Shown here: positions 6,815-7,023 of the stretch, piece after piece
Layout: each line of letters opens with the position of its first letter
Position numbering within the stretch: position 1 is the first letter of the stretch
Assembly (NCBI RefSeq): GCF_003334785.1
Contig: NZ_QOWV01000037.1
Strand: one strand, 5' to 3'
Length of the DNA: 7,023 nt
From: Escherichia coli
GTDB lineage: Bacteria > Pseudomonadota > Gammaproteobacteria > Enterobacterales > Enterobacteriaceae
Made by a program: the position numbers and the translations under genes
The notes under the pieces: generated by a model
Told to the model about the DNA's origin: nothing
Database searches by the model: none
Seen by the model: the letters and a program-made list of their open reading frames with translations, nothing else

Positions 6815-7023
6815 CCTGTCTGGTATTATTGTAAATATTTTCAGATATATATTACCTGGATGATGGTTAAGATTAATTTATTTAATTTTGGGGAGAAAAC
6901 TCATGAAACTGTTAAACATTCTTTTAGCTGTTGTTTTAACTGTAAGGTAACCGGCTCATTTAAACCGTCTGGTCTGTTTCCTCCGGCTCTACAAAAATAA
7001 TGTCCATCATTTTTAATGGACAC

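Follow-up and report, generated by a model that had tools for sequence, protein, structure and literature searches.

Background

The genes yfjT and ykfB are counted among the uncharacterised genes (the y-ome) of Escherichia coli K-12 (PMC11551758). Published insertion sequences of the IS66 family measure 2,731 and 2,829 bp and have 8-bp repeats (PMC3281130). Members of both families meet at the 3' edge of the stretch of E. coli DNA analysed here (7,023 nucleotides, hereafter the window), where a 15-codon open reading frame (ORF) starting at position 6903 is almost certainly the remnant of a YfjT/YkfB-family pseudogene cut by an IS66-family element.

Results and discussion

Island context

The window belongs to a CP4-type integrative island. 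It carries a YeeP/YfjP-like GTPase gene (16-927), an internally deleted Ag43/Cah autotransporter gene, a dynamin-family (CrfC-like) gene (2406-4802), a gene of the RdcB family (Pfam YjcZ; 4799-5704) and a patatin-like phospholipase gene (5701-6771, plus strand), the last being the final member of the dynamin/RdcB/patatin module. The autotransporter gene has lost approximately 1.85 kb relative to the uninterrupted locus L006, with the junction near 2065-2068 (window 1551-2068 matches L006 1-518, and window 2065-6953 matches L006 2365-7254), and a 289-aa ORF (1224-2093) remains, which matches positions 1-257 of 948 in the Ag43 profile. Besides appearing in the ORF list, the patatin-like gene was supported by RefSeq annotation of the identical region in three other loci (L001, L004 and L018) and by Pfam PF01734 on the identical protein. 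Overlaps of 4 nt were found at both boundaries within the module (4799-4802 and 5701-5704), and thus suggest that the three genes (2406-6771) are translationally coupled; PADLOC returned marginal matches only for this module (LeoBC, E = 5e-4; phospholipase effector, E = 5e-4).

Downstream of the patatin-like gene lies a terminator-like hairpin (6791-6809, or 6791-6814 with its T-run, plus strand; an 8-pair stem, CACCGCCACTGTGGTGGTG, followed by TTTTTCC) that is conserved in related loci, and which suggests that the yfjT-like gene behind it would form a transcription unit of its own. In the related loci the island goes on with DUF4339/GYF_2, DUF932, antirestriction, RadC, DUF987 and CbeA/CbtA genes.

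A short hydrophobic ORF with a genuine start

The preliminary description had reported a 15-aa ORF with a ribosome-binding site, GGGAG at 6891-6895, 7 nt before the ATG, in an AT-rich 3' flank, and all of this held: the ORF runs on the plus strand from an ATG at 6903-6905 to a TAA at 6948-6950 (translation MKLLNILLAVVLTVR), the reported pentamer lies within a Shine-Dalgarno (SD) sequence GGGGAG (6890-6895, plus strand), and the GC fraction is 0.26 at 6810-6946 versus 0.53 over the entire window. Such a combination is rare in the window, as only 3 of the 98 ATG-started ORFs of 10-40 codons on its two strands had an SD-like 4-mer 5-16 nt upstream, and among these three the ORF at 6903 was by far the most hydrophobic (mean Kyte-Doolittle value 1.81, versus at most 0.79). 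The signal formed by the SD and the ORF is beyond chance. Both the SD and the ATG are conserved across related loci, the former as GGGGAG or GGAGAG (L001, L002, L004 and L005), and in strain TB4328 (L004) this ATG is the NCBI-annotated start of a 152-aa coding sequence (CDS) of the yfjT family, to which the SD belongs. Judged from these comparisons, the SD and ATG (6890-6905) constitute a genuine gene start, the 3' end of the ORF being artificial.

An IS66-family element interrupts the reading frame

When positions 6700-7023 were compared by megablast with 5,426 complete E. coli genomes, similarity downstream of the patatin-like phospholipase gene stopped at about 6946-6953, and 3' of this point the matches were IS66-family elements. 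The breakpoint was resolved by the uninterrupted locus of strain SCPM-O-B-9427 (L001), positions 3073-3247 of which match window positions 6772-6946 exactly (100%). After ...ACTGTAAG, this locus reads TGCAACCGTAGCACAA... and the window reads GTAACCGGCTC... (at greater length, GTAACCGGCTCATTTAAACC...). The native 5' stub of the YfjT/YkfB-family gene, as delimited by this match, comprises codons 1-14 and 2 nt of codon 15 (6903-6946, plus strand). The ORF (6903-6950) is therefore chimeric, with codon 15 and the stop codon completed by IS bases 1-4: the first IS base, G, turns the native codon 15 from AGT (Ser) into AGG (Arg), and IS bases 2-4 are the TAA stop.

The insertion sequence starts at position 6947, as indicated by the comparisons with L001 and with L003 (strain JML285) and by the fact that three independent copies (in the window, in ETEC H10407 and in JML285) are identical exactly from GTAACCGGCTC onwards, with unrelated left flanks. 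Positions 6947-7023 (plus strand) represent the left end of an ISCro1-like member of the IS66 family, being identical at 77 of 77 positions to L003 3424-3500, the end of a complete element (3424-6122; 2,699 bp) that contains tnpA, tnpB and a transposase gene annotated as 'IS66-like element ISCro1 family transposase'. In this reference copy, the element is flanked on both sides by an 8-bp direct duplication, GATTAGCC, and its inverted repeats, which start with GTAA, are imperfect (18 of 30 positions match); the window holds the left IS end only, whose terminal inverted repeat, likewise imperfect, begins with GTAACCGG. The element extends past the last base of the window, and its tnpA gene is annotated with a start codon at 7001. 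This codon is overlapped by an inverted repeat of 10 pairs (ATGTCCATCATTTTTAATGGACAC, 7000-7023) in the left IS end, and the resulting hairpin could hide it in read-through transcripts from outside the element. Used as a query, the end of this multicopy element, into which the window reaches for 77 nt before stopping at 7023, matches as many as 17-20 sites in a single E. coli genome; the window probably derives from a short-read contig that was broken off at the IS repeat.

The 8 bp adjoining the IS end, ACTGTAAG (6939-6946), are the predicted target site, because an 8-bp duplication flanks the same element in JML285 and because duplications of 8 bp have been reported for IS66-family elements (PMC3281130, Table 2); a second copy would be expected at the right end of the element.

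In JML285 itself (L003 3180-3423), likeness to the window ends at the SD, at about window position 6893, and in place of the yfjT-like gene there are 230 bp of different sequence, after which a further copy of the same IS follows. The island therefore varies between strains at this point.

The junction between gene and element was not encountered elsewhere. An exact 37-nt junction pattern had no matches in 100,044 species-representative genomes or in JGI metagenome contigs, and a 70-nt junction query produced no true junction match in the 5,426 complete E. coli genomes. Three partial matches to the latter were obtained (86-91% coverage, 85-89% identity), and the one inspected, from H10407, consisted of the IS end with a chance extension into another AT-rich flank. 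Exact-protein look-ups with the patatin and dynamin-family proteins of the window returned solely loci without the IS. The lack of other occurrences fits a recent, strain-specific insertion.

The parent gene belongs to the YfjT/YkfB family

In all 15 uninterrupted relatives examined, the reading frame runs on past the breakpoint, to 25 or to 152 codons. The intact form is found in TB4328 (L004 4035-4493), where a CDS of 152 aa (WP_000771527.1) begins with the same SD and ATG; NCBI/PGAP annotates it as 'YfjT/YkfB family phage-associated protein'. Homology to the family was confirmed by direct comparison of this protein with K-12 YfjT from CP4-57 (E = 1e-21, 31% identity, residues 3-137) and with YkfB from CP4-6 (32% identity). 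Assignment of the parent gene to Pfam PF27224 (YfjT) rests on precomputed annotations, namely those of internal-start products of the same gene and of database homologues of the intact protein; the Pfam-A copy searched here was without the PF27224 model, and gave a weak match to Laminin_G_3 only (E = 0.017). The parent protein matched no family among the NCBIfam profiles, no PDB sequence and no PADLOC entry, while in PHROGs it matched phrog_3429, of unknown function, at E = 9e-5 (E = 7e-15 for K-12 YfjT). When 1.84 billion cluster representatives were searched exhaustively with phmmer, only 36 relatives were recovered at E <= 1e-3, and the majority measure 148-166 aa. Further independent disruptions of the yfjT-like gene are seen in P0019 and P0004, truncated or fused products of 40 and 116 aa, respectively.

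Sixteen of these relatives, full-length or N-terminal representatives of the family, were read, and as judged by eye the N-terminus of every one has its hydrophobic core between a basic n-region and a small-residue site of the A-x-A type; in most of the 16 this site is followed by a conserved x-P-N-x-W motif, and the parent gene likewise shows both the signal peptide and the Trp motif. Since such an N-terminus is shared by all 16 representatives, the 14 native residues in the window are read as the n-region (MK) and the hydrophobic core (LLNILLAVVLTV) of a predicted Sec signal peptide, and the hydrophobicity of the 15-codon ORF is attributed to this core. The preliminary description, which had raised the possibility of an N-terminal remnant of a disrupted membrane-protein gene, was right about the remnant, but the parent appears to be a secreted YfjT/YkfB-family protein, neither a membrane protein nor yeeR-like. 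A complete CDS of about 150 aa is not present in the window, where the frame stops at codon 15, at the IS junction; the copy is therefore a remnant and not a functional member of the family.

An amber codon probably preceded the insertion

Among the uninterrupted loci retrieved, eleven are close to the window, namely L001 and L006-L015, and L006-L015 encode exactly its patatin protein. Over lengths of up to 4.9 kb, L001, L006, L014 and the metagenome contig L016 showed 99.9% identity to the window. All 11 loci carry TAG at codon 26 (L001 3279-3281; L006-L015 7278-7280), a position that relative to the window lies beyond the IS, and the remaining 151 codons of the 152-codon frame are open. Codon 26 corresponds to the Trp that is conserved family-wide just after the signal peptide; in protein cluster P0002 it specifies Gln (CAG). 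Gene callers annotate 117-aa or 57-aa fragments in the amber-bearing loci. The amber allele, which is also present in Shigella sonnei 53G, looks like a young, widespread pseudogene allele. Because the closest relatives carry this codon, the yfjT-like copy of the window was probably inactive before the element arrived, and it was likely already a pseudogene when the IS landed.

Alternative explanations

An independent type I toxin gene of the Ibs, Ldr or ShoB kind, encoding a hydrophobic membrane peptide repressed by an antisense sRNA, would account for a short, very hydrophobic peptide behind a good SD, and a CbtA/CbeA toxin-antitoxin pair is located further downstream on the island in related loci. 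A gene of this type should, however, be a self-contained, conserved ORF with its own stop and be accompanied by an antisense RNA. Here the IS end provides the stop codon, the frame continues in 15 of 15 uninterrupted relatives, the junction is unique among the 5,426 E. coli genomes, and the residues in question are the conserved signal peptide of a family of proteins of about 150 aa. As for the antisense partner, neither the Rfam nor the promoter scans revealed an antisense or overlapping sRNA gene: none of the Rfam families, those of the known antitoxin sRNAs among them, matched the ORF at E <= 1 (the only match over 6500-7023 being a chance one to a CRISPR repeat at 6515-6545), and the standard scan found no promoter-like site on either strand near the ORF. 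A relaxed scan gave matches of 8-9 of 12 positions only, among them a weak 8/12 match on the minus strand (6946-6918), so that the minus-strand sRNA promoter envisaged in the preliminary description was not found in the standard scan and amounted to this weak match in the relaxed one. The same description had compared the peptide with Ibs-like toxins and had stated that a longer known gene whose broken 5' end aligned with the segment would tell against a toxin; the alignments show exactly such an arrangement, and a type I toxin is accordingly exceedingly improbable. It had also considered a leader peptide, that is, an ORF controlling a downstream gene through attenuation or translational coupling, as might be expected of a short SD-bearing ORF in an intergenic-looking, AT-rich stretch. 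What lies downstream is only the IS end, with no structural gene equipped with an attenuator and no terminator or antiterminator on the plus strand, whereas in the relatives the supposed leader forms part of the gene, as its in-frame N-terminus; given also the IS-derived stop and the continued frame, the chance that the ORF is a leader peptide is vanishingly small.

A remnant might still have acquired a function, either as a translated stub acting in the membrane or by letting read-through from the yfjT-like promoter affect tnpA. With its SD and ATG intact, the stub may be translated; the ORF also points in the same direction as tnpA, the start of which (7001) is just 51 nt past the stop codon, and the hairpin at 7000-7023 overlaps that start. 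Yet the unique junction shows no conservation, 15 residues are probably too short to span the bilayer, and the promoter scan of the upstream region found no promoter-like site, all of which makes an acquired function very unlikely. Hardly more can be said for a further variant, in which the stub, or the 25-codon amber version, yields a membrane-active free peptide resembling a signal peptide, or in which the amber allele is kept for a useful product restarted at Met36 that lacks the signal peptide; this too is very improbable.

Origin and meaning of the 15-codon ORF

The breakpoint, the identity of the two halves and the longer ORF in the relatives are established by sequence comparison. According to the favoured explanation, the decay of a YfjT/YkfB-family gene, a gene of this family lay 3' of the patatin-like phospholipase gene in a CP4-type integrative island of E. 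coli, with a predicted secreted protein of about 150 aa and unknown function as its product. An IS66-family element inserted at ACTGTAAG, within codons 13-15, and left in place the native ribosome-binding site and codons 1-14, start codon included, which are predicted to specify the signal peptide's n- and h-regions. The remainder of the gene, together with the duplicated ACTGTAAG, would be situated beyond the IS and outside the window; simple insertion predicts a right junction in which ...GACGAGTCGCTTAC is followed by ACTGTAAG and then by TGCAACCGTAGCACAAACAGAATCGGCATTGTAG..., that is, ACTGTAAG then TGCAACCGTAGC. An IS-mediated deletion or rearrangement is a possible alternative to simple insertion, and the two look alike here because the window ends in the IS repeat; the reading of the 15-codon ORF is the same under both. 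If translated, the stub would give a 15-residue peptide that is probably functionless, because it has no signal-peptidase site and is too short for a membrane span.

The case is one of ordinary IS-mediated gene decay, a kind of event already known, and its biological weight is small, as one more instance of IS-driven decay in a degenerate CP4-type island, where the Ag43/Cah gene of the same window has suffered an internal deletion and the yfjT-like gene of the closest relatives already carries a nonsense codon. It carries a caution for the annotation of small ORFs, namely that where a short hydrophobic ORF lies behind a good SD at an AT-rich edge, the two can be the start of a signal-peptide gene cut by an IS. 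Since IS66-family ends begin with GTAA, a TAA stop will, frame permitting, land straight after the breakpoint, as it did here.

Comparison with known systems

The ORF resembles the type I toxins of the Ibs/Sib, Ldr/Rdl and ShoB/OhsC systems in its length (about 15-35 aa in those systems) and its strong hydrophobicity, but differs from them in being neither self-contained nor conserved, and in having no antisense partner and no Rfam match. Compared with the IS66-family elements described in the literature (PMC3281130), the copy in JML285 agrees in size and in the length of its duplication, while the window carries just the first 77 bases of the element. The closest likeness is to YfjT and YkfB (PF27224), encoded by the K-12 cryptic prophages CP4-57 and CP4-6. 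The uninterrupted gene has the same length (about 152-157 aa) and the same layout, consisting of a signal peptide, a conserved Trp just past the cleavage site, and INCT and FDV motifs, and the islands are alike in their GTPase, DUF932, antirestriction, RadC, DUF987 and CbeA/CbtA genes. The copy in the window differs in that it retains codons 1-14 only, from which no mature protein can be made, and the neighbourhood differs in that the K-12 gene follows the lipoprotein gene yfjS or yafY, whereas here it is the dynamin-family/RdcB/patatin module that precedes the yfjT-like gene.
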